A stretch of 64,000 nt of DNA, from contig CAVQUB010000027.1 of the NCBI GenBank assembly GCA_963716725.1, positions 1 through 64,000 of the forward strand. The letters run 5' to 3'. This document shows positions 34,437-45,021 of this stretch, one piece after another. Origin of the DNA: an uncultured delta proteobacterium. Lineage in GTDB: Bacteria; Myxococcota_A; Polyangia; Polyangiales; Polyangiaceae. Both the position numbers and the translations under genes were made by a program. How positions within the stretch are numbered: position 1 is the first letter of the stretch; the number at the start of each line of letters is the position of its first letter. The notes beneath the pieces were generated by a model. The model was not told the origin of the DNA. It ran no database searches and saw nothing but the letters and a program-made list of their open reading frames with translations.

Positions 34437-35399
34437 ATGATGCCCTCGACGGAAGCCGCCCTGACGCTCGACGCCTTCGGGCTCAGCGATATCGGCTTGG
34501 TTCGCAAAACCAACGAGGACGTGATCGTGATCCGCGAAGATCTCGCGCTTTACGCCGTGTTCGACGGCGCTGGAGGTCACGACGCTGGAGACATCGCCGC
34601 GCAAGCCGCTGCGCGGTCGGTCCAAAAGCACTTGGCCGAGACCCAATCAGAGGCCATGTCGCAGCCCGAATTCGACTCCTTCGGCATCGCCCTCGAGGGG
34701 CGCCGACTGGCGACCGCCACGCACCAGGCCAACAAAAGCGTCACCGACATCGCCAAAGCGGCGAAGAGCCGCCGCGGCATGGGCACCACGGTGGTGGCGC
34801 TGCTGTTCTCCAGGCGTTCGTCCTTGGTGCATGTCGTGCACGCGGGCGATAGCCGCTGCTACCGCTTGCGTGCCGGTAACCTCGAGCAACTGACGGTGGA
34901 TCACTCGATGATCAACGACGTCATCGAACAACGCCCCGACCTCGAGGACAGCGTGCTCTCGAGCCTGCCGCAACACGCCGTGACCCGCGCCCTGGGCATG
35001 GAAGACCGCCTGCGAGTTCCCTTGGCATCGCATCAAGTCGTGGACGGCGATCGCTTTCTACTGTGCAGCGACGGGCTCTCGGGCGAGGTCACTCCCGAAG
35101 CCATCGCCAGCGCCCTCGCCCGCCGGCACCCGCCGGCCGAGACCGTGGTCGCGCTGATCGACCTGGCCAAGGGCGAAGGGGGCTCGGACAATGTCTCGGC
35201 GGTCGTGATCGATTGCCACGGCCCGCGCCGCGCTGCCGTTCCGGTCTACGATCGCTCGAGCATCGACTGGTCTCCGGACGATTCGGCCTCCGCACCCGAG
35301 GTCTTGCTGCTCGGCATCGAAGAGCTGGCTCTCGACGAGATCGTCGGCGCCGACGTGGACGATCTCGGCGCCGTGCTCGAGCGACTCCTGAGGAAATGA
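34437..35399 (+). CDS. PP2C-family Ser/Thr protein phosphatase
   Basis: SDIGLVRKTNED, VFDGAGG, GMGTT, GDSRCY, LLCSDGL and GSDN motifs. Confidence 0.92.
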   Translation: MMPSTEAALTLDAFGLSDIGLVRKTNEDVIVIREDLALYAVFDGAGGHDAGDIAAQAAARSVQKHLAETQSEAMSQPEFDSFGIALEGRRLATATHQANKSVTDIAKAAKSRRGMGTTVVALLFSRRSSLVHVVHAGDSRCYRLRAGNLEQLTVDHSMINDVIEQRPDLEDSVLSSLPQHAVTRALGMEDRLRVPLASHQVVDGDRFLLCSDGLSGEVTPEAIASALARRHPPAETVVALIDLAKGEGGSDNVSAVVIDCHGPRRAAVPVYDRSSIDWSPDDSASAPEVLLLGIEELALDEIVGADVDDLGAVLERLLRK

Positions 35400-36520
35400 G
35401 CATGGACCCCCAGACCCCTCGTCATCGAGTTCACGAGCCTCAGCTCTGCTCCGCGGATCTGCCCGCCGCTGGCGGCGCCATCGGACCGGAGCCGGAGGAC
35501 TTCCGCGTCGACGAAGTGCTGGACTGGCCCCTGGAGGGCACCGGCGATCACGTCTGGCTCCGAATCGAGAAGCGCTTGCTCAACACGCAGGACGCCATCG
35601 AAATCGTGGCGCGCGCGGCGGGGATCCGCGGCCGCGACGTGGGCAGCGCAGGCATGAAGGACAAACATGCGGTGACCGCCCAGTGGCTCTCGATCCCCGC
35701 CAACGTCAAGGACCCGTCGACCTGGCAGTTGCCGGATTCGCTGCGCATCCTCGAATCTACGCGACACCCGAAGAAGCTCCGCACCGGACAGCTGGCGGGC
35801 AATCGCTTCACCATCCGCCTGGTCGGCGTGCCCGCTGGGGGCGCCGCTCGAGCAGAGGCCATCGTCGCTCGGCTTCAGGAGCGCGGGCTGCCGAATCACT
35901 TTGGTGCGCAGCGCTTCGGCATCGACGGGAAGAACCTCGCCCGCGCGGTGGAGTGGCTCGCGTCAGGAGCGCGGGGCGACCAGAAACGGGGGCGCTTTTA
36001 TACCAAGCTCTACCCGAGCGTGGTGCAATCCGAGGTGTTCAATCGCTATCTGACCTTGCGCTCCGAGCTCGGTCTTACGCGGCTGATCCCCGGCGACGTG
36101 GTCCGCCTCGAGGGTTCGGGATCGGTCTTCCTGGTCGAGGACCCCGAGCGTGAGCAATCCCGCCTCGACGAGGGAGACATCCACCTGACAGGCCCGATGC
36201 CCGGGCCGAAGATGCGCCGCGCGTCCGGCGCTGCACTCGAGCTCGAGGAGCGCGCCGCCCGGGACGCCGGCTGCGACGCGGATCTCTTGGACAAGCTGGG
36301 GCGATTCGTCGACGGCACTCGGCGCGACCTGCTGATCCAGCCAGGAGAACCGACGTTGTCGGAACCCGAGCCGGGGCAGCTCGTGCTCTCTTTCTTCTTG
36401 CCCGCGGGCAGCTACGCCACCGAGCTGATCCGCGAGCTGACCCGCGCTCCCTTCTTCTCACCGCGACAGGACCGGCCTCCGTTGGCAGCGGAGGGCTCGC
36501 GGGGTAACCTGCCGCCCCTG
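35396..36520 (+). CDS. truD: tRNA pseudouridine(13) synthase; reads in frame into a TerB-like gene
   Basis: PEDFRVDE, AGMKDKHAVT.QW, GNRF, PNHFGAQRFG and FFLPAGSYAT motifs. Confidence 0.9.
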
Positions 36521-36946
36521 ATGAACCGCTTCGACATGACTGACGCGCAGGATCTCCCCCCCCCAAAGCTCGAGGCGCTGGTCGAAATGATGTTCCTCGC
36601 AGCCTTTGCCGACGGCGAGTTCAGCGAGGCAGAACAGGCCCACTTCAAGCAGAGCCTCCAGTCGCTGACCAGCTCCCGACTCGCGGCGGACGAGGTCGAC
36701 GCGCTGCTCTCGCGGGTGAAGACCGATGTCGGCACCCACGGCCGGGAGGCACGGCTCGTTTCGGTCAAAGAGCGGCTGCCGGAACCCGGCCTTCGCAAGG
36801 TCGCCCTCGCGCTGGCGATCCAGGTCACCGCCGCCGATGGCATCATCCGCACCAGCGAGCGCGAACTGATCATGGAGACGGCGGATGCGCTGGAGGTCGA
36901 CCGCGACGAGGCTGCGGATCTGGTCCGCAAGCTCGCTCCGGGCTGA
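36521..36946 (+). CDS. TerB-like tellurite resistance domain protein
   Basis: AAFADGEFSEAE and AADGIIRTSERELI motifs. Confidence 0.75.
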   Translation: MNRFDMTDAQDLPPPKLEALVEMMFLAAFADGEFSEAEQAHFKQSLQSLTSSRLAADEVDALLSRVKTDVGTHGREARLVSVKERLPEPGLRKVALALAIQVTAADGIIRTSERELIMETADALEVDRDEAADLVRKLAPG

Positions 36947-39692: not shown

Positions 39693-40417
39693 AGCGTCGG
39701 CAGCACGAAGTGCTCTCGCAGGAGCTGCGCCGTGAAGCTCGCGCGCAGGTAGAACCCCTTGGGCATGGCGTCGAAGATCGCGCCGTCGCGGTCGGTTCCG
39801 CGCCGGCGCGAGCGTGAGTTCGCAGCCTTGGGGCGGATCTGCAGGCACTGACCCAGGTGTCCGGTGATGCTCTCGACGTCGCCGCGACCGATGATGCCGG
39901 CCAGCTCTTCCCAATCGAAGCGCAGCGCGCTCTCTTGCAGTCGGCTCGGGCTCCAGATCAGCGGCTCACCCAAGCGGCGCGCCGCGGGCGCGAGACTCCG
40001 CTCCCCCTGCACCGGCACCCACAGCACTCGCCGCAACTTGCGCAGAACCGGCGAGTCTTCCCACTCGAGATTCGCGACCTCGGTCAGCGGAATGGTGCAC
40101 ACGAAGGTGGACTCGACGGGGCGCCCCTGGGCATCCACCGGTAAGGTCTTGAGCTCGACGCCGAGCGCCGAGAAGTCGGGCAGAGCGCGCGGGCCAGCGT
40201 CCGCTCCGAGCACGCGCTCGATGAGCCCACCCACAAAGCCCTTGGCGCGGCGCAAATCCAGCGGGCACGGGAGACCGAGCTCGGCCGCTACCTCTCCGAT
40301 CGTGCGCCCGGCCAGCGCGCGGGCGCGGATGACGAGCTCGGTCTCGGAGCGGGGGCGGGGAGGTTGCACCAAGGCCGCTTCGACGATATCCGGAAGAGGC
40401 CGATGCTCCTCCGACAT
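39689..40417 (-). CDS. mutH: MutH-family endonuclease
   Basis: KGFVG.LIE..LGA.AG, PDF..LGVELKTLPV, ESTFVC, DWEEL, LQIRPKAANS and GFYLRASFT motifs. Confidence 0.88.
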   Translation of the reverse strand: MSEEHRPLPDIVEAALVQPPRPRSETELVIRARALAGRTIGEVAAELGLPCPLDLRRAKGFVGGLIERVLGADAGPRALPDFSALGVELKTLPVDAQGRPVESTFVCTIPLTEVANLEWEDSPVLRKLRRVLWVPVQGERSLAPAARRLGEPLIWSPSRLQESALRFDWEELAGIIGRGDVESITGHLGQCLQIRPKAANSRSRRRGTDRDGAIFDAMPKGFYLRASFTAQLLREHFVLPTL

Positions 40418-41950
40418 TCAGCGCTCCTTGCCTGCTTCGCCCTGCTGGCCTGCACCAGCCGGGAACCGAAGCAGCATCCTCCCGAGGGATCTGCGGCGGC
40501 CCAGGCGAGCGATTCCCCCGCCGAACCGGTGCCCCCAGCCGCGGGGGTCAGCGCGGCGATTGCCGAACCCGCCGCGCCTCCGCCGAGCCCGAAGGAGCCG
40601 CGGGTCTACGCCAAGAGCCGCTTCGTCTGGGTCTACTCCGAGCCAAACGCCGTGGGCTGGACGGGGTTTCTGTGGCTCGGAGGCTCGGTGAAACTGAAGG
40701 ACCCCGAGCCCAAGAACGGCTCGGGCTGTACCCAGTGGTACGCCATCGAGCCTCGAGGCTACGTGTGCGTGGACGGTGTGCGGGCGACGCTCGACGAAAA
40801 CGACCCAGCGCTGGTGGCGATGCGGCCCTACGCGCCCAAGCTCTCGACGCCCTGGCCGCACCGTTACGGAGAGTCGCGCGGGGTGGTCCGCTACTCCGAG
40901 ATCCCGAAGCCCTCCGAGCAGCGAGCGCGCGAGTGGGACTACGTGGAGCACTCAGACCGGGTCGCCGCGGCCAAGCGCGGCGAGGCCGCTCACGATTCGT
41001 TGGTCGGAGTCGATCTCGCGCCCGCCACCACCGCCGCCTTCTCCCTGGGTAAGTTGCCATCGACGGTCCATGAGCCACGCAAGCGCTTGATCCCGACCTC
41101 GACGGTTGCGTACTCGGCCGAGGCCCTCGCAGACGATCGAACCTGGCTGCTCAGCGCCGACCTGCTCTGGGTGCCCAAGGACCGCGTGGTGCCGTACAAA
41201 CAGGTGGACTTCAAGGGCGTGCACCTGGGCAAGGACGCTCGGCTACCCCTGGCGTTCTTTCGCAGCAAGGACCGGCCCCAATTCCAGCTCGCCGGCGACA
41301 AGCTGATCGAGACCGCGGAGCGCTTCGAGCGACTGTCCTTCGTCGAGCTGACGGGAGAGCAGCGCGAGCAAGAAGGCAGCACCTACCTCGAGACGCGGCA
41401 GCCGGGGCGCTGGGTGAAGAAGTCCGACGCCGTCGTGCCTACGCCCCAAGAAAAGACACCCTGGGGCGCGCCGGTGGGCGGCGAAGACACCAAGCAGGGG
41501 CCCGCCGGGCGCCGCACCTGGATAGAGTCGAGCGTGTGGCAGGGCTGGATGATCGCCTTCGAAGGCACGCGTCCTGTGTTCGCGACGCTGATCGCGCCGG
41601 GGCGCGGTGGAACTCCGAAAAAGGGCGTCGACGCCATCGAAACCGCAGCCACTCCGGTGGGCGTATTCCCCATCACCGGCAAATTCGCGACCGCCACCAT
41701 GGTCGCACCGGGCGATCTGGTGCACTCCGATGTCCCGTGGGCCCAGAACTTCAGCGGTCCCCACGCGCTGCACGGCGCCTACTGGCACAACGACTGGGGT
41801 GACCGCAAGAGCGGCGGCTGCGTCAATGTCTCGCCCATCGACGGCAAGTGGCTATTCGAGTTCACCGAGCCGCCCATTCCCGACGGCTGGCACGGCGTGC
41901 GCTGGCGCCCGAACGTAGAGCCGGCGACGACCTTCATCGTTCATCATTGA
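40403..41950 (+). CDS. L,D-transpeptidase (YkuD) lipoprotein
   Basis: LLAC lipobox; TPVGVF and ALHGAYWH..SGGCVN catalytic motif. Confidence 0.88.
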   Translation: MLLRHSALLACFALLACTSREPKQHPPEGSAAAQASDSPAEPVPPAAGVSAAIAEPAAPPPSPKEPRVYAKSRFVWVYSEPNAVGWTGFLWLGGSVKLKDPEPKNGSGCTQWYAIEPRGYVCVDGVRATLDENDPALVAMRPYAPKLSTPWPHRYGESRGVVRYSEIPKPSEQRAREWDYVEHSDRVAAAKRGEAAHDSLVGVDLAPATTAAFSLGKLPSTVHEPRKRLIPTSTVAYSAEALADDRTWLLSADLLWVPKDRVVPYKQVDFKGVHLGKDARLPLAFFRSKDRPQFQLAGDKLIETAERFERLSFVELTGEQREQEGSTYLETRQPGRWVKKSDAVVPTPQEKTPWGAPVGGEDTKQGPAGRRTWIESSVWQGWMIAFEGTRPVFATLIAPGRGGTPKKGVDAIETAATPVGVFPITGKFATATMVAPGDLVHSDVPWAQNFSGPHALHGAYWHNDWGDRKSGGCVNVSPIDGKWLFEFTEPPIPDGWHGVRWRPNVEPATTFIVHH

Positions 41951-41998
41951 GAGTCCGACGGCCCAAGTCGGTACGTGCCTCATTGGTCGAAAGACCGG

Positions 41999-42070
41999 TG
42001 GAGACGACCGGGATTCGCACCCGGATCTTCGGCTTGCAACGCCGACGCCCTCCTGTTGGACGATCGCCCC
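41999..42070 (-). tRNA. Atypical tRNA-Ala(TGC) or tRNA-like gene
   Basis: Minus strand GGGGCGA-TC-GTCC-AACAGGA-GGGC-G-TCGGC-GTTGCAA-GCCGA-AGAT-CCGGG-TGCGAAT-CCCGG-TCGTCTCC-A folds as a cloverleaf; no encoded CCA. Confidence 0.75.
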
Positions 42071-42226
42071 ATCTGGCCCCTGCTCGGGGGCCGCTACCGC
42101 CCGCGGGCGGCCTACTTCGTTGCTCGGATCACGTCGAAGCCCCGGGGGGCTTGGCGAGACCGATCTTGTGACGAACGATCTTCAATTCGTACTCCTGATG
42201 TGAAGGTCCGGATCCCATGGAACACG

Positions 42227-42341
42227 GAGGCCGCCTCGCAGGCGGCCTCGACGCAAACACACAGGTGTCGTGGGAGGACTACCGCGAGCGCGCTCCTCGG
42301 AGCGCGTCGGCGAAACGCGTATCGCGTACGGGATGGGACAT
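42227..42341 (-). promoter_or_regulatory. Leader peptide 2 (42341-42279, MSHPVRDTRFADALRGARSR) plus terminator-like hairpin (42227-42249)
   Basis: 20-codon ORF; 10-bp stem GAGGCCGCCT/AGGCGGCCTC; stop region GCGG-TAGT-CCTC is complementary to the 5' arm. Confidence 0.55.
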
Positions 42342-42440
42342 GAGTTGGTATTCAGACGGATGAGGGTGGAAGAATGTTTCCGGGTTTCTTTCGAGCGACG
42401 AAACCGGGGCCTTTAGTGGGCAAATTGCCCCAAATGCAGA

Positions 42441-42557
42441 ACGGCCGCTCGGGTCACGAGCGGCCGTCGCATGCCTCGGGCAACGCGACCGCTAGGTGGT
42501 TCCGCCGTCGGAGCCGCGCTCGCGGCGGGACGGATCGGTGAAACCTGCGGTCAACAT
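42441..42557 (-). promoter_or_regulatory. Leader peptide 1 (42557-42492, MLTAGFTDPSRRERGSDGGTT) plus terminator-like hairpin (42441-42467)
   Basis: 21-codon ORF; 11-bp stem ACGGCCGCTCG/CGAGCGGCCGT followed by TCTGCATTT; stop-overlapping AGCGGTCG is complementary to the 5' arm. Confidence 0.55.
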
Positions 42558-42567
42558 GACGGGCGCA

Positions 42568-43063
42568 CTAGTGCCGCGCGGCCGAAGTTCGAGTGGATTC
42601 GCCCCTGAGACCTGCGCTCATTTGGGCTCTCACAGGAAGGGCGGAAGAGCGGAAGGATTTGGGGTGGTCAGGCGTTAGCCTCCGCAGGCCATTTCTGAGC
42701 GCGGTCACGTTGAAGTTGACGAGCAGGCCGACGGGCAACCGCGAAAGGCGCAGATAGGTGATGACCTGCGCTTCGTAAATCGGGAGCAGCCGCTCCACCG
42801 CCTTGAACTCCAGGAGGATACGATCTGGAAGCGACCAGGTCGAGGCGATAGGCGCAGTCAAGGTGTACGCCTTTGTAGCGGATTGGTAGCGGTCGCTGCC
42901 GCTCGAACTTGAGCCGTCGTTCGGACAGCTCGGCAGATAGACAGGCCTCATATGCGGATTCCATCAGCCCTGGACCGAGATGCCGATGCACCTCGATCAG
43001 CGCACCGATCACCTCGTCCGTCCCATCCCCAAATCTTCCGAGCTTTCGCCCTTCCTGTGCCAT
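42568..43063 (-). CDS. GxxExxY protein (PD-(D/E)XK-like), frameshift near 42825
   Basis: IGALIEVHRHLGPGLMESAY and YRLDLV, then in the next frame LEFKAVE..EAQVITYLRLS..GLLVNFN. Confidence 0.88.
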
Positions 43064-43633
43064 CCCCGTGTGGTCGGGCCTCACTCCGAAACAGTTGCGG
43101 CTTTCTTCGCAGAAAGTGAGGGGATTTTTCTGGGTTCGGCCCACGACTTGGGGCGGTACGACCAGCGAAAGGGTCGGTCGGTCTGCAGATACCACGCGAC
43201 GTACGCGTCGATCCTCGCCGCGAGGTCGTCGGTGCTTCTACTCGAGCCGCTACGGTGTCCGAGAGAGAGAGGGCGGCCGTCCCGAGCGCGGGGCGTCCGC
43301 CAGTCTCTCGCTAGGTGCCGCGCAGTCGAAGCGCTTGCGCCAGTCGTCCACCGTGCGCACGTGCACCCCGAGGAGCCGGGCGATGTCCGTCGCAGGCACT
43401 CCGTCCGCCATCATCAACACGGCCTGCGCCCGACGAACCAGCCGCTGCTCCGCCCTGGCGGGTCGCAACGCCTCCTCGATCCGCGCGCGCTCTTCAGCCC
43501 TCAGCGCGAGCGGAACCGTCGGACGACCACCGTGCGCTCGACCCGCGAACGCGCTGTAGTCGATCATGTCACCCCACTACACCGACGACACGCACACGGA
43601 AAAGAAACCAGCGAAACTTCTGCCGCGCGGCAC
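42571..43633 (-). mobile_element. Non-autonomous, internally deleted IS630-family element
   Basis: Terminal IRs GTGCCGCGCGGC(C/A)GAAGTT (18/19 match); TA at 42569-70 and 43634-35 from a CTAG target; transposase N- and C-terminal remnants inside. Confidence 0.85.
43081..43567 (-). pseudogene. IS630 transposase remnant: HTH N-terminus joined to extreme C-terminus, DDE core missing
   Basis: RRAQAVL..IARLLGV..TV..WRKRF..LADAPRSGRP (43567-43250); GS..STDDLAARIDAYV..PFRWSY (43257-43081). Confidence 0.8.
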
Positions 43634-43657
43634 TAGTAGGCGCGGCCAAGCCCCTTG

Positions 43658-44347
43658 TCAAGTGCCGGGAGGCTGCGCCGGTCGGCGTGCATGCAGACCG
43701 AGCGGCACCTCGAGCTCATCGGCGAGACTCTCGAGGAAGGAACGGAGAAACTCGACTCGACGTTCGGCTTCGCGCCGACCACCCTCGGTGGTCATGGTCG
43801 CTGGCAGGTCGAGCAGCTTCGTGAAGAAGTGATCGACCGAGTACTTGGCGTCGTCGAGCGCACGCTCGACGCCCCACGGGTCGCTCGGATGAAAGTAGCG
43901 CGCATTCATGCGCGCACCCGTCGAAATGCAGCGCATGAGCCCGAGCGCGCCGAGGGCCTCGAGGCGATCGGCGTCTTGAAGAGCACGGCCGAGGAGCGTG
44001 CTCGGCGTCGCGCCGCGGCTGAAGCTATGGTCGCGGATCGCTTCGGCAACCAGGTCGGTTTCGTCGGGGGAAAAGCCATGCTCGGGGAGCCACTCACGCG
44101 CCACGGCCGCCGAGCGCTCGCTGGCCTGACTCCGCTCCGGCGAGTCCTTCGGCAGATTGACGATGTCGTGCAAGAGCGCTGCCGCGAGCGCCACTCGCAC
44201 CGGGACGTCGTCGCCGCTCAGGCGCAGCGTCCAGCGCGCGACCCGCAAGGCGTGCTGAAGATCGTGCCCGGGATCGTCGCCGAGGCCGGCTCGGGCTTGG
44301 GCTATCAGCCCGGGCAGCTCGCGCTCGGCCAAGGTCTGTAGGTTCAT
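43658..44347 (-). CDS. HD domain phosphohydrolase
   Basis: GHDLQHALRV, ALLHD, HSFS and QDADRLEALGA motifs. Confidence 0.9.
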   Translation of the reverse strand: MNLQTLAERELPGLIAQARAGLGDDPGHDLQHALRVARWTLRLSGDDVPVRVALAAALLHDIVNLPKDSPERSQASERSAAVAREWLPEHGFSPDETDLVAEAIRDHSFSRGATPSTLLGRALQDADRLEALGALGLMRCISTGARMNARYFHPSDPWGVERALDDAKYSVDHFFTKLLDLPATMTTEGGRREAERRVEFLRSFLESLADELEVPLGLHARRPAQPPGT

Positions 44348-45021
44348 GACTCGCCCGTCTCAGCCCGGGAAAATGGCCGCATCCGTCGCCCATCGAAGCG
44401 GTAGTAGCGCGCTCGACGATGACGCACGCCGGTCTCGCGGTCGTCCAGCGGCACCAACGCCGGCCAAGAAAGCACACGCTTGCGGAAGTTCCGCTTGTCG
44501 AGCGCCTCACCGAGCACCGCGAGATGCAGCGCTTGCAGCTCACGCAACGTGAACCTGACCGGCAAGAGCTCTTGCCCGAAGGGCAGTCGCTCAGCGCGCG
44601 CGCGGACGCGCGCCAACGCGCGTTCGAGGGCCTCTGCGTGATCGAACGCGAGTTCCCTCGCCTTCTTCAGCGGCACCCACTCCGCTCGCCGCGCGTCGTC
44701 CCCCGCAGCGGGAACCTGCTCGGACATTCGCACCAGGGCGAGGTGTGCGACGCTGACCACCCAACCGCGAGGATCCCGCCCGGGCTGACTGAAGGTGTGC
44801 AGCTGCTCGACCGCGACCTCGGTGAGCCCAGTCTCTTCCGCGAGCTCGCGGGCGGCCGCCTGTTCGACGCTCTCGCCCGAATCGACGAAGCCACCAGGCA
44901 AGGCCCATTTCCCTGCGAACGGCTCATTGCCGCGTTGGATCAACAGCACGCGGAGCCCGTCGCCATCGAAGGCGATGGCCACGACGTCCGCGGCGAGCGA
45001 GGGCCGCGGGGTGTCACTCAC
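44344..45021 (-). CDS. nrtR: NUDIX hydrolase with wHTH, NrtR-like regulator
   Basis: WALPGGF..ES...AA.REL.EETG, RDPRG, LAFDH and DKRNFRK motifs; follows nadE. Confidence 0.8.
   Translation of the reverse strand: MSDTPRPSLAADVVAIAFDGDGLRVLLIQRGNEPFAGKWALPGGFVDSGESVEQAAARELAEETGLTEVAVEQLHTFSQPGRDPRGWVVSVAHLALVRMSEQVPAAGDDARRAEWVPLKKARELAFDHAEALERALARVRARAERLPFGQELLPVRFTLRELQALHLAVLGEALDKRNFRKRVLSWPALVPLDDRETGVRHRRARYYRFDGRRMRPFSRAETGES

Follow-up and report, generated by a model that had tools for sequence, protein, structure and literature searches.

The leader-peptide attenuators of amino-acid operons include trpL and hisL; in the erm, cat and ABC-F leaders and in toiL-topAI, the short leader open reading frames (ORFs) lack amino-acid runs, and a stalled ribosome frees an anti-terminator. 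To our knowledge, leader-peptide attenuators have been described only before protein-coding operons, and a full-text literature search for such attenuators in connection with transfer RNA (tRNA) operons found none upstream of a tRNA gene. The pheL leader is likewise described as a leader-peptide transcription attenuator (PMC3082878). Here, we analyzed a 64,000-nt stretch of DNA from an uncultured Polyangiaceae bacterium (assembly GCA_963716725.1, contig CAVQUB010000027.1, positions 1 to 64,000; hereafter, the window) and focused on a cassette of ~600 nt that holds three micro-ORFs, three hairpins and an unusual tRNA-Ala-like gene. An earlier note on this DNA had seen in part of it two tandem leader-peptide attenuators upstream of a tRNA gene. 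Leader ORFs with alternative hairpins are known as a kind; new are the setting before a non-canonical tRNA, the twin build of a promoter and a predicted leaderless ORF, and the third conserved micro-ORF.

The cassette is real and under selection, and very probably functional and transcribed. It occurs once in the source genome (G000) and is present in five of seven genomes of one Polyangiaceae genus (G000 and G001–G006), as well as on four metagenome contigs (L066, L071 and L072, near G004; L082, near G001). The five lineages compared below are G000, G005, G002, G001 and G004. Cassette alignments share 76% (G005), 75% (G002) and 69% (G001) identity with G000, and G004 carries a complete but more diverged copy; searches of G003 and G006, which are 96% and 73% complete, found no copy. 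When 383 family genomes were searched by BLAST with positions 42275-41985 as query, matches outside the genus at E < 1e-4 fell on the tRNA part only, weaker matches being short GC-rich pieces (one of the 383 is an unpublished genome, G257, and nothing claimed here depends on it). An Rfam search of 41500-43300 at E up to 10 returned only tRNA, plus matches at chance level.

The genes flanking the cassette are unrelated from genome to genome. Upstream lie NadE, NrtR, an HD protein and a PDDEXK_3 repeat in G000, a Ser/Thr kinase in G005, SodC in G001, a metallophosphatase in G004 and a cyclophilin in G002; downstream, G000 has a convergent YkuD gene and G002 an OTCase, and in G001, G004 and G005 an SPFH gene follows at ~550 nt. 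The region from the promoter to ~30–70 nt past the tRNA-like gene is thus kept as one block amid changing flanks. While the flanks cannot be aligned, the cassette holds blocks of 100% identity across lineages whose SPFH proteins share only 72–81%. Its parts, all on the minus strand, and the repeat copy that adjoins it are as follows.

42568..42573, minus strand: remnant of the -10 box of promoter-like block P1, CACTAG (from alignments)
42492..42557, minus strand: ORF1, 21 codons including the ATG start, then TAG; peptide MLTAGFTDPSRRERGSDGGTT (ORF list; five of five lineages)
42486..42493, minus strand: candidate anti-terminator strand AGCGGTCG, overlapping the stop codon and complementary to the 5′ arm of T1
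42431..42467, minus strand: hairpin T1, ACGGCCGCUCG / UGACC / CGAGCGGCCGU, with tail UCUGCAUUUG; candidate intrinsic terminator (folding, alignment)
42352..42381, minus strand: P2, GGAAAC-N17-CGTCTGA, a motif like those of extracytoplasmic function (ECF) sigma factors (conserved in five of five lineages)
42279..42341, minus strand: ORF2, 20 codons including the ATG start, then TAG; peptide MSHPVRDTRFADALRGARSR (ORF list; five of five lineages)
42254..42270, minus strand: small hairpin, CGACAC, four bases, GUGUUUG (predicted in every lineage)
42227..42249, minus strand: hairpin H2, GAGGCCGCC / UGCGA / GGCGGCCUC, then CGUGUUCCAUGGG (folding)
42192..42196, minus strand: Shine-Dalgarno sequence AGGAG, 6 nt before ORF3 (alignment)
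42129..42185, minus strand: ORF3, TTG + 18 codons, TGA; peptide (M)KIVRHKIGLAKPPGAST (alignment)
42075..42112, minus strand: two GC hairpins (CCGCC..GGCGG and GGCCCC..GGGGCC) without U-tract (sequence)
41997..42070, minus strand: tRNA-Ala-like gene, anticodon UGC, T-loop UGCGAAU, 3′ acceptor strand UCGUCUCC, then ACC (Rfam)
42563..43090, minus strand: 3′ part of a frameshifted multi-copy cassette of PDDEXK_3 (GxxExxY-type) (BLAST; Pfam, E 5e-20)

Contigs from three metatranscriptome runs of a single study cover the cassette at 42340-41840 (501 nt; run X16), at 42329-42020 (X17), and at 42536-42273 and 42272-42122 (X18); assembled RNA contigs reveal neither the strand nor the true ends nor the level of a transcript, and stretches without cover are not evidence for silence there. 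Within 41500-43100, this cover runs from 42536 to 41840, and the sole other piece, 33 nt at 41763-41795, is read as coming from other organisms (2–3 mismatches, both ends loose). A DNA contig of the same study spans 42572 to 41500. The contig starts at 42340 and 42329 fall 5 and 16 nt downstream of 42345, where P2 is predicted to start transcription (+1). H2 is bridged by RNA contigs in two runs and T1 in one (X18), although the X18 contig could be contaminating DNA. Taken together, the cover is consistent with transcription that is confined to the cassette and starts near P2, and the contigs joining ORF2, H2, ORF3 and the tRNA-like gene fit one transcript with read-through. Past 42000, the cover could stem from read-through or from the convergent gene.

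As the earlier note had described, ORF1 (42557-42492) and ORF2 (42341-42279) lie on the minus strand, their peptides contain no run of a single amino acid, and GC-rich hairpins follow the stops at about 25–30 nt. Both ORFs end in TAG; T1 begins 26 nt past stop 1 (11 bp) and H2 29 nt past stop 2 (9 bp). The distance is 26–29 nt in four lineages and 19–29 nt overall, and this layout of ORF, spacer and GC hairpin upstream of the tRNA-like gene, whose conservation the note had proposed to look for, recurs in five lineages of the genus. ORFs by themselves are no more than expected by chance here, given that 40000-45000 contains 68 ORFs of at least 20 aa and that the other two frames of the ORF1 and ORF2 spans hold 0–1 stops. 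The two peptides are poorly conserved. ATG, TAG and frame are nevertheless kept in five of five lineages, with lengths of 63, 63, 63, 51 and 60 nt for ORF1 and 60, 60, 60, 63 and 87 nt for ORF2. All four lineage-specific length changes (-12, -3, +3 and +27 nt) are thus multiples of three, for which the odds would be ~1 in 81 if length were unconstrained; non-coding spacers change by other lengths (e.g. 38, 41, 48 nt; 47, 58, 73, 123 nt). Start codons are always ATG in ORF1 and ORF2, and TTG or GTG in the Shine-Dalgarno-led ORF3. Leaderless initiation needs AUG, and usual promoter distances put the transcript start four nucleotides before the ATG, so ORF1 and ORF2 are predicted to be almost leaderless. 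A kept ATG, TAG and frame around a free peptide is the pattern expected where translating the ORF is what counts, whatever peptide results; this is not yet proof, and from these alignments we consider translation of ORF1 and ORF2 to be somewhat favored.

In a near-identical strain, represented by a DNA contig from run X13, ORF1 differs from that of G000 at just two positions (42495 and 42537), both synonymous third positions (ACC to ACG and ACC to ACT). Within the whole cassette the two strains differ at eight positions, five of which cluster in the spacer between T1 and P2 (42399-42420).

Module 1 consists of P1, ORF1 and T1. A sigma-70-like TTGACA-N17-TAnnnn block lies upstream of ORF1 in G005, G002, G001 and G004, with -10 boxes among the relatives reading TACTAG, TACTCA, TAAATG, TAGATC and TAAACA, and the X13 contig has TTGACA-N17-TACTAG at the P1 site (its loose end lies at 42572). 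ATG1 follows the -10 box of P1 by 10 nt, which predicts a leader of ~4 nt and a start at ~42561. The T1 hairpin proper (42467-42441) has an 11-bp stem, the loop UGACC and the tail UUCUGCAUUU; across six sequences, nine of its stem pairs are invariant and 100% of cells are paired. At stop 1, the block TAGCGGTCGCG is invariant in four of five lineages, while the body of ORF1 varies.

In both modules, the earlier note had pointed to bases at the stop codon that are complementary to the 5′ arm of the following hairpin, making the two folds mutually exclusive. Such pairings can be read in both, in module 1 in four of five lineages and in module 2 at chance level. When the T1 3′ arm was left out in folding G000, G005 and G002, the segment AGCGGUCG, whose bases overlap the UAG, paired with the 5′ arm CGGCCGCU. 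This 8-bp pairing exists in four of five lineages, G004 retaining just 5 of the 8 bp. Compared with 500 dinucleotide shuffles per lineage, the duplex between stop region and 5′ arm was equalled by 14 shuffles in G000, 24 in G005, 7 in G002 and 4 in G001. An inner hairpin extends the anti-terminator pairing to 15 pairs in total, and in the six-sequence alignment 88.6% of the cells of this larger hairpin are paired, versus 30–52% in controls with the partner columns slid; two pairs in its inner part show compensatory changes. In four lineages, which are related, module 1 is hence laid out like an attenuator, though covariation does not prove it, and attenuation there is plausible, although we would put it forward only tentatively.

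Module 2 consists of P2, ORF2 and H2. Between T1 and ORF2, no non-coding blocks are better conserved than the P2 boxes, in five of five lineages; their 17-nt spacing agrees with the 16–17 nt of an ECF-dependent promoter, and ATG2 follows P2 by 10 nt (12 nt in G004), again predicting a leader of ~4 nt. Among the elements given in PMC3397946 for ECF sigma factors, with CarQ of Myxococcus xanthus as one of the examples, are a -35 GGAACTT and a -10 CGTC, and the P2 sequence GGAAAC-N17-CGTC fits these boxes. The strict P2 motif occurs once in G000, and in G002 and G005 it occurs only within the cassette; a single match in G003 proved to be unrelated sequence. A sigma-54 promoter between T1 and ORF2, considered by eye, was possible in G005 and G002, but is absent from G000 and was discarded. 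Within ORF2, Ala codons (GCR) recur at two positions in four lineages, a thin signal in a GC-rich genome. The small hairpin past stop 2 has a different sequence at the same place in G004 (GCACC ACUC GGUGC), and between G001 and L082 one of its pairs changes from G-U to A-U. Pairing of GCGG..CCTC with GAGGCCGC was matched by 65 of 500 shuffles in G000 and by 172–334 of 500 in the other lineages, i.e. at chance level, and the CCTC half exists in G000 only. Attenuation by module 2 is unsupported and, in our estimation, improbable. The picture of two tandem attenuators within one leader probably does not apply either, as each ORF stands behind its own conserved promoter-like block.

Between H2 and the tRNA-like gene lies a third ORF with a Shine-Dalgarno sequence that had been missing from the earlier note. 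AGGAG or GGAG is found 6–9 nt before the ORF3 start in all lineages. The start is TTG or GTG, except for a TTA in G001, whose close relative L082 has TTG; an ATG within CCATGGG was rejected as the start, being in frame in G000 only. ORF3 has a conserved core, MKI[VL]RHKIGL, and a variable tail, which is Ala-rich in G005 (AAAA) and G001 (ALA) and absent from G004, where the frame stops after codon 10. Over codons 2–10, four of 27 columns vary: three at synonymous third positions, one at a first position (Val/Leu) and zero at second positions. From this substitution pattern, ORF3 is likely translated. When the 43-aa frame that surrounds ORF3 was compared with proteins of 23–76 residues, the only lengths covered, no candidate emerged, and no NCBIfam family matched ORF1, ORF2 or ORF3. 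The ORF3 pattern occurred in 12 stretches of species-representative genome contigs (G001, G005 and G004 again, plus nine unrelated) and in 20 stretches of metagenome contigs (the four with the cassette and 16 unrelated). The spacer between ORF3 and the tRNA-like gene measures 47–123 nt among lineages and contains one or two GC hairpins.

Of the tRNA gene that the earlier note had placed downstream, the tRNA-like sequence itself is borne out, at 42070-42000 on the minus strand, yet it is non-canonical. It scores 50 bits with Rfam RF00005 (gathering score, 29 bits), and four relatives score 38.8–49.3 bits; ARAGORN called no tRNA gene in the window and none in L011–L014. The tRNA-like body is identical in all lineages and the anticodon loop varies, with the anticodons UGC (G000, G005), CGC (G002, G004) and UCA (G001, L082), the last together with C33, which is also present in G002. 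All copies carry TGC in the T-loop where TTC is normal. By its T-loop, by position 33 and by the ARAGORN result, the gene departs from a canonical elongator tRNA. Its 3′ acceptor strand is one U longer than that of the nearest relatives. The identity set for alanyl-tRNA synthetase (AlaRS) is the G3:U70 wobble plus A73. With the extra U bulged (GGGG/CUCC, bulge, CGA/UCG), G3:U70 and A73 are kept, whereas the Rfam register gives G2:U71, G3:C70 and C73, and RNAfold gave no cloverleaf for the 74-mer; as the acceptor sequence is invariant, covariation cannot choose between the registers. Given the T-loop, the extra U and, in one lineage, UCA with C33, the backup tRNA envisaged in the earlier note is just one of several readings, and its idea that the leader ORFs sense general translation stress is speculation. 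A role of the tRNA-like gene outside translation is thinkable.

The nearest relatives of the gene are tRNA-Ala(CGC/UGC) genes in arrays of 7–24 ARAGORN-called tRNA genes in the same family, whose Ala members have a clean G3:U70. It shares 61 of 74 bases with the array tRNA-Ala(CGC) of G002, 49–53 with four tRNA-Ala genes that G000 has for housekeeping, and 44 with a fifth ARAGORN 'Ala(ggc)' call on contig C32 that does not look like a tRNA. Such arrays, within 3 kb, are found in many family genomes (L015, L021, L022, L029–L036, L039, L041). Several array members carry GGUGC T-arms, that is, TGC for TTC, and ARAGORN misses some array tRNAs, e.g. an Ala(CGC) between tRNA-His and tRNA-Trp in G002, G003 and G004.

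The stop codons form a further pattern. TAG ends ORF1 and ORF2 (42494-42492 and 42281-42279) and TGA ends ORF3 (42131-42129) in all five lineages, TAG being the rarer stop in GC-rich genomes. Both TAGs stand in conserved GCGG/TAG/C contexts, and the UCA anticodon of the G001 and L082 copies is opal-reading.

As an overall explanation, we favor, while rating it well short of even, a self-contained, genus-specific transcription unit whose end product would be a non-canonical tRNA-Ala paralogue. Both modules are built alike, from promoter-like boxes, a predicted leader of ~4 nt, a micro-ORF of 17–29 codons that always starts with ATG, a TAG, a spacer of 19–29 nt and a GC hairpin. In module 1, a ribosome at the UAG would cover AGCGGUCG, so that T1 folds and the P1 transcript ends; were the ribosome held earlier, AGCGGUCG would stay exposed and could pair with the T1 5′ arm, and transcription would continue. 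Module 2 would start transcripts at an ECF-type P2, and these would pass H2, at most a weak pause site or terminator. P2 transcripts would carry micro-ORF3 (MKIVRHKIGL...) and the tRNA-like RNA, which RNase P would free. The odd tRNA-Ala paralogue and micro-ORF3 may accordingly be expressed from two promoters, with module 1 gating the sigma-70 input. Of this picture, the data show the anatomy and how it is conserved, the length changes that keep the frame, the cover by RNA-library contigs and a possible alternative fold in module 1, while promoter activity, translation of ORF1 and ORF2, termination at T1, the direction in which the switch works and any tRNA function are inferred.

A number of observations weigh against this explanation. 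Where G000 should have its P1 -35 box, it has the end of a repeat with >30 copies. A consensus scan of 41800-42800 called no sigma-70 promoter and no intrinsic terminator, and the same held for the G005 copy; the T1 tail has 4 T in the 8-nt window after the hairpin, where the scan requires at least 5, and is a poor U-tract, while H2 lacks a U-tract in four of five lineages, G004 having UUUCGCGUUUUUG. As the X18 contig spans T1 and P2, T1 would not be absolute, and the RNA contigs speak for neither strand nor ends nor level. Covariation in the anti-terminator, which the earlier note had named as a test, was sought and is missing from the diagnostic outer helix, where five of the eight pairs are invariant and two are broken in G004/L072. 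For G004, 461 of 500 shuffles gave a module 1 duplex as strong as the native one, and the four supporting lineages are not independent, since they share the invariant block. The 1:2 helix, between CCGC at the ORF1 start and the stop region, is only 57% paired, and the leader peptides show no run of any codon that could be regulatory. Finally, these genomes show no P2 motif outside the cassette, so that no regulon backs the ECF reading.

The rival that has to be taken most seriously, possible if on the doubtful side, divides the cassette into three independent small genes, P1-ORF1-T1, P2-ORF2-H2 (leaderless mRNAs or small RNAs of ~110–130 nt, with a micro-protein or a regulatory RNA as the active product) and ORF3 with the tRNA-like gene; the hairpins would be gene ends and the complementarity a by-product of GC content. 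This would suit the conserved promoter-like boxes found at equal distance before each ORF, the hairpins 26–29 nt past the stops in four lineages, the missing alternative fold in module 2 and the RNA contigs that begin near P2 in two runs. It is harder to square with ORF1 and ORF2 peptides that are poorly conserved, unlike those of functional micro-proteins, with RNA contigs that bridge T1 and H2, with an invariant block at stop 1 whose complementarity to the terminator arm exceeds that of shuffles in four lineages, and with parts that always occur together despite differing flanks. Less probable again, and in our view unlikely, are one or more long structured non-coding RNAs ending in a tRNA-like domain, within which ORF1 and ORF2 would be untranslated and their ATG and TAG would be RNA or DNA motifs. 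The uninformative open frames (0–1 stops in the others) leave room for this, several hairpins are conserved, the inner and the small hairpin with compensatory changes, and a second tRNA mimic lies downstream in three relatives. All four ATG-to-TAG length changes are in frame, however (~1 in 81), the ATG stands strictly 10 nt past the promoter-like boxes, ORF3 combines a coding substitution pattern with a Shine-Dalgarno sequence, and Rfam recognizes no family besides tRNA.

That the cassette is a decaying, functionless remnant of a tRNA array or mobile element, alike among genomes merely by recent descent, appears very unlikely. The location of its nearest tRNA relatives in arrays of 7–24 tRNA genes, the tRNA defects (TGC T-loop, extra U, C33 in two lineages), the TTA start of ORF3 in G001 and the missing copies in G003 (96% complete) and G006 (73% complete) would be in line with decay; against it stand blocks of 100% identity between unalignable flanks, next to SPFH proteins of 72–81% identity, an invariant tRNA body and RNA-library contigs over the cassette. 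Hardly credible is a transfer-messenger RNA (tmRNA)-like rescue RNA, in which a tRNA-Ala-like domain and ORF3 would add a tag to stalled proteins. A short ORF does adjoin an acceptor of alanine type (G3:U70 and A73, if the extra U is bulged), and the ORF3 tails of G005 (AAAA) and G001 (ALA) are Ala-rich. ORF3, though, has its own Shine-Dalgarno sequence and start codon, the cloverleaf 3′ of it is complete and includes an anticodon arm, the ORF3 tails differ among lineages, and G004 stops after 10 codons. Neither ARAGORN nor Rfam found a tmRNA in the window, and since G000 carries a normal tmRNA (tag ANDNAIALAA, contig C17) and normal tRNA-Ala genes, the cassette is not a tmRNA.

The favored explanation, a self-contained unit with module 1 as attenuator, can be carried further, into a reading to which we assign very little likelihood. 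An ECF envelope-stress promoter and a translation-gated sigma-70 promoter would control a dedicated non-proteogenic tRNA-Ala, kept off EF-Tu and the ribosome by its TGC T-loop and bulged stem; charged by AlaRS, it would pass its alanine to an acceptor other than the ribosome (cell envelope or peptide), or else serve uncharged as a regulatory mimic, with the leaderless micro-ORFs reporting the translation state. If true, this would be the first known leader-peptide attenuator controlling a tRNA.

The surroundings of the cassette showed several further features. Upstream, a PDDEXK_3 cassette of ~520–740 nt is present in ~32 copies in G000 (e.g. L002–L010), ~17 of which extend further upstream; positions 43080-42563 give 31–34 BLAST matches per 20-nt bin within the genome. 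The copy at 42563-43300 (minus strand) is frameshifted, with ORFs at 43195-42668 and 42951-42568, and its 3′ end abuts ORF1 and displaces the -35 box of P1. As the DNA contig of the related strain lacks the PDDEXK_3 copy at that spot, this copy is either a recent insertion or an assembly mis-join at the repeat. A gene for a fusion of TruD (tRNA pseudouridine-13 synthase) and TerB lies 5 kb from the cassette (35063-36946, plus strand; Pfam).

About 120 nt downstream of the tRNA-Ala-like gene, G005 has a permuted tRNA mimic (L084:8813-8882), as do G001 (L086) and G004 (L087). Its order is T-arm, acceptor-like stem with closing loop, and D-arm, closed by UCUGA/UCAGA, and it resembles the tRNA-like module of YrlA (RF02553, 29.7 bits versus a gathering score of 69, E 0.024). 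With this score below gathering and the TROVE/Rsr family found in none of the five genus genomes searched, a standard Ro-Y RNA locus was rejected. The conserved SPFH/Band 7 gene then follows the mimic; neither of the two was found in the G000 assembly.

Should the switch prove real, control by ribosome sensing would reach the supply of a special tRNA, and Myxococcota would offer a small system in which to study how leaderless translation is coupled to transcription. It would also point to the second tRNA paralogue, next to the staphylococcal tRNA-Gly, that is made to stay out of translation. Otherwise, what remains is still a clean set of micro-genes, specific to the genus and supported by RNA libraries.

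Among known systems, tmRNA (ssrA) likewise unites an alanine-type acceptor end and a short reading frame on one RNA, whereas the cassette has a complete 3′ cloverleaf and an ORF with Shine-Dalgarno sequence and start codon. With the Polyangiaceae array tRNA-Ala(CGC/UGC), the cassette gene has in common the D-arm GUCCAAYAGGA and a GGGUGC T-arm; unlike the array members, it is solitary, carries an extra U in the 3′ acceptor strand and is preceded by a three-ORF leader that was not seen beside the array copies inspected. Antibiotic- and stall-sensing leaders also use short ORFs without amino-acid runs, a parallel to the stress-sensing idea, and R-H-K in ORF3 is a +x+ motif, which we take to be of the macrolide-sensitive kind. 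In contrast to these leaders, no resistance gene lies downstream, and the ORF1 and ORF2 peptides share no arrest motif across lineages. The staphylococcal non-proteogenic tRNA-Gly, as portrayed in PMC7826273, shares the TGC-for-TTC T-loop, with no U55 to become pseudouridine, and is likewise an extra paralogue beside normal isoacceptors. Compared with that tRNA-Gly, the identity here is alanine rather than glycine, and FemAB-family genes (in none of the seven genus genomes) and LPG_synthase_C (only in G000, G003 and G006) do not track with the cassette. Finally, as in the trpL, hisL and pheL attenuators, module 1 places a short ORF just upstream of a GC hairpin, with a stop region that pairs with the 5′ arm. 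The cassette differs from them in lacking a regulatory codon run, in its poor U-tract and weak 1:2 helix, in ORFs that are predicted to be almost leaderless, each behind its own promoter-like motif, and in its product, which is a tRNA-like RNA plus a micro-ORF rather than a set of biosynthetic enzymes.

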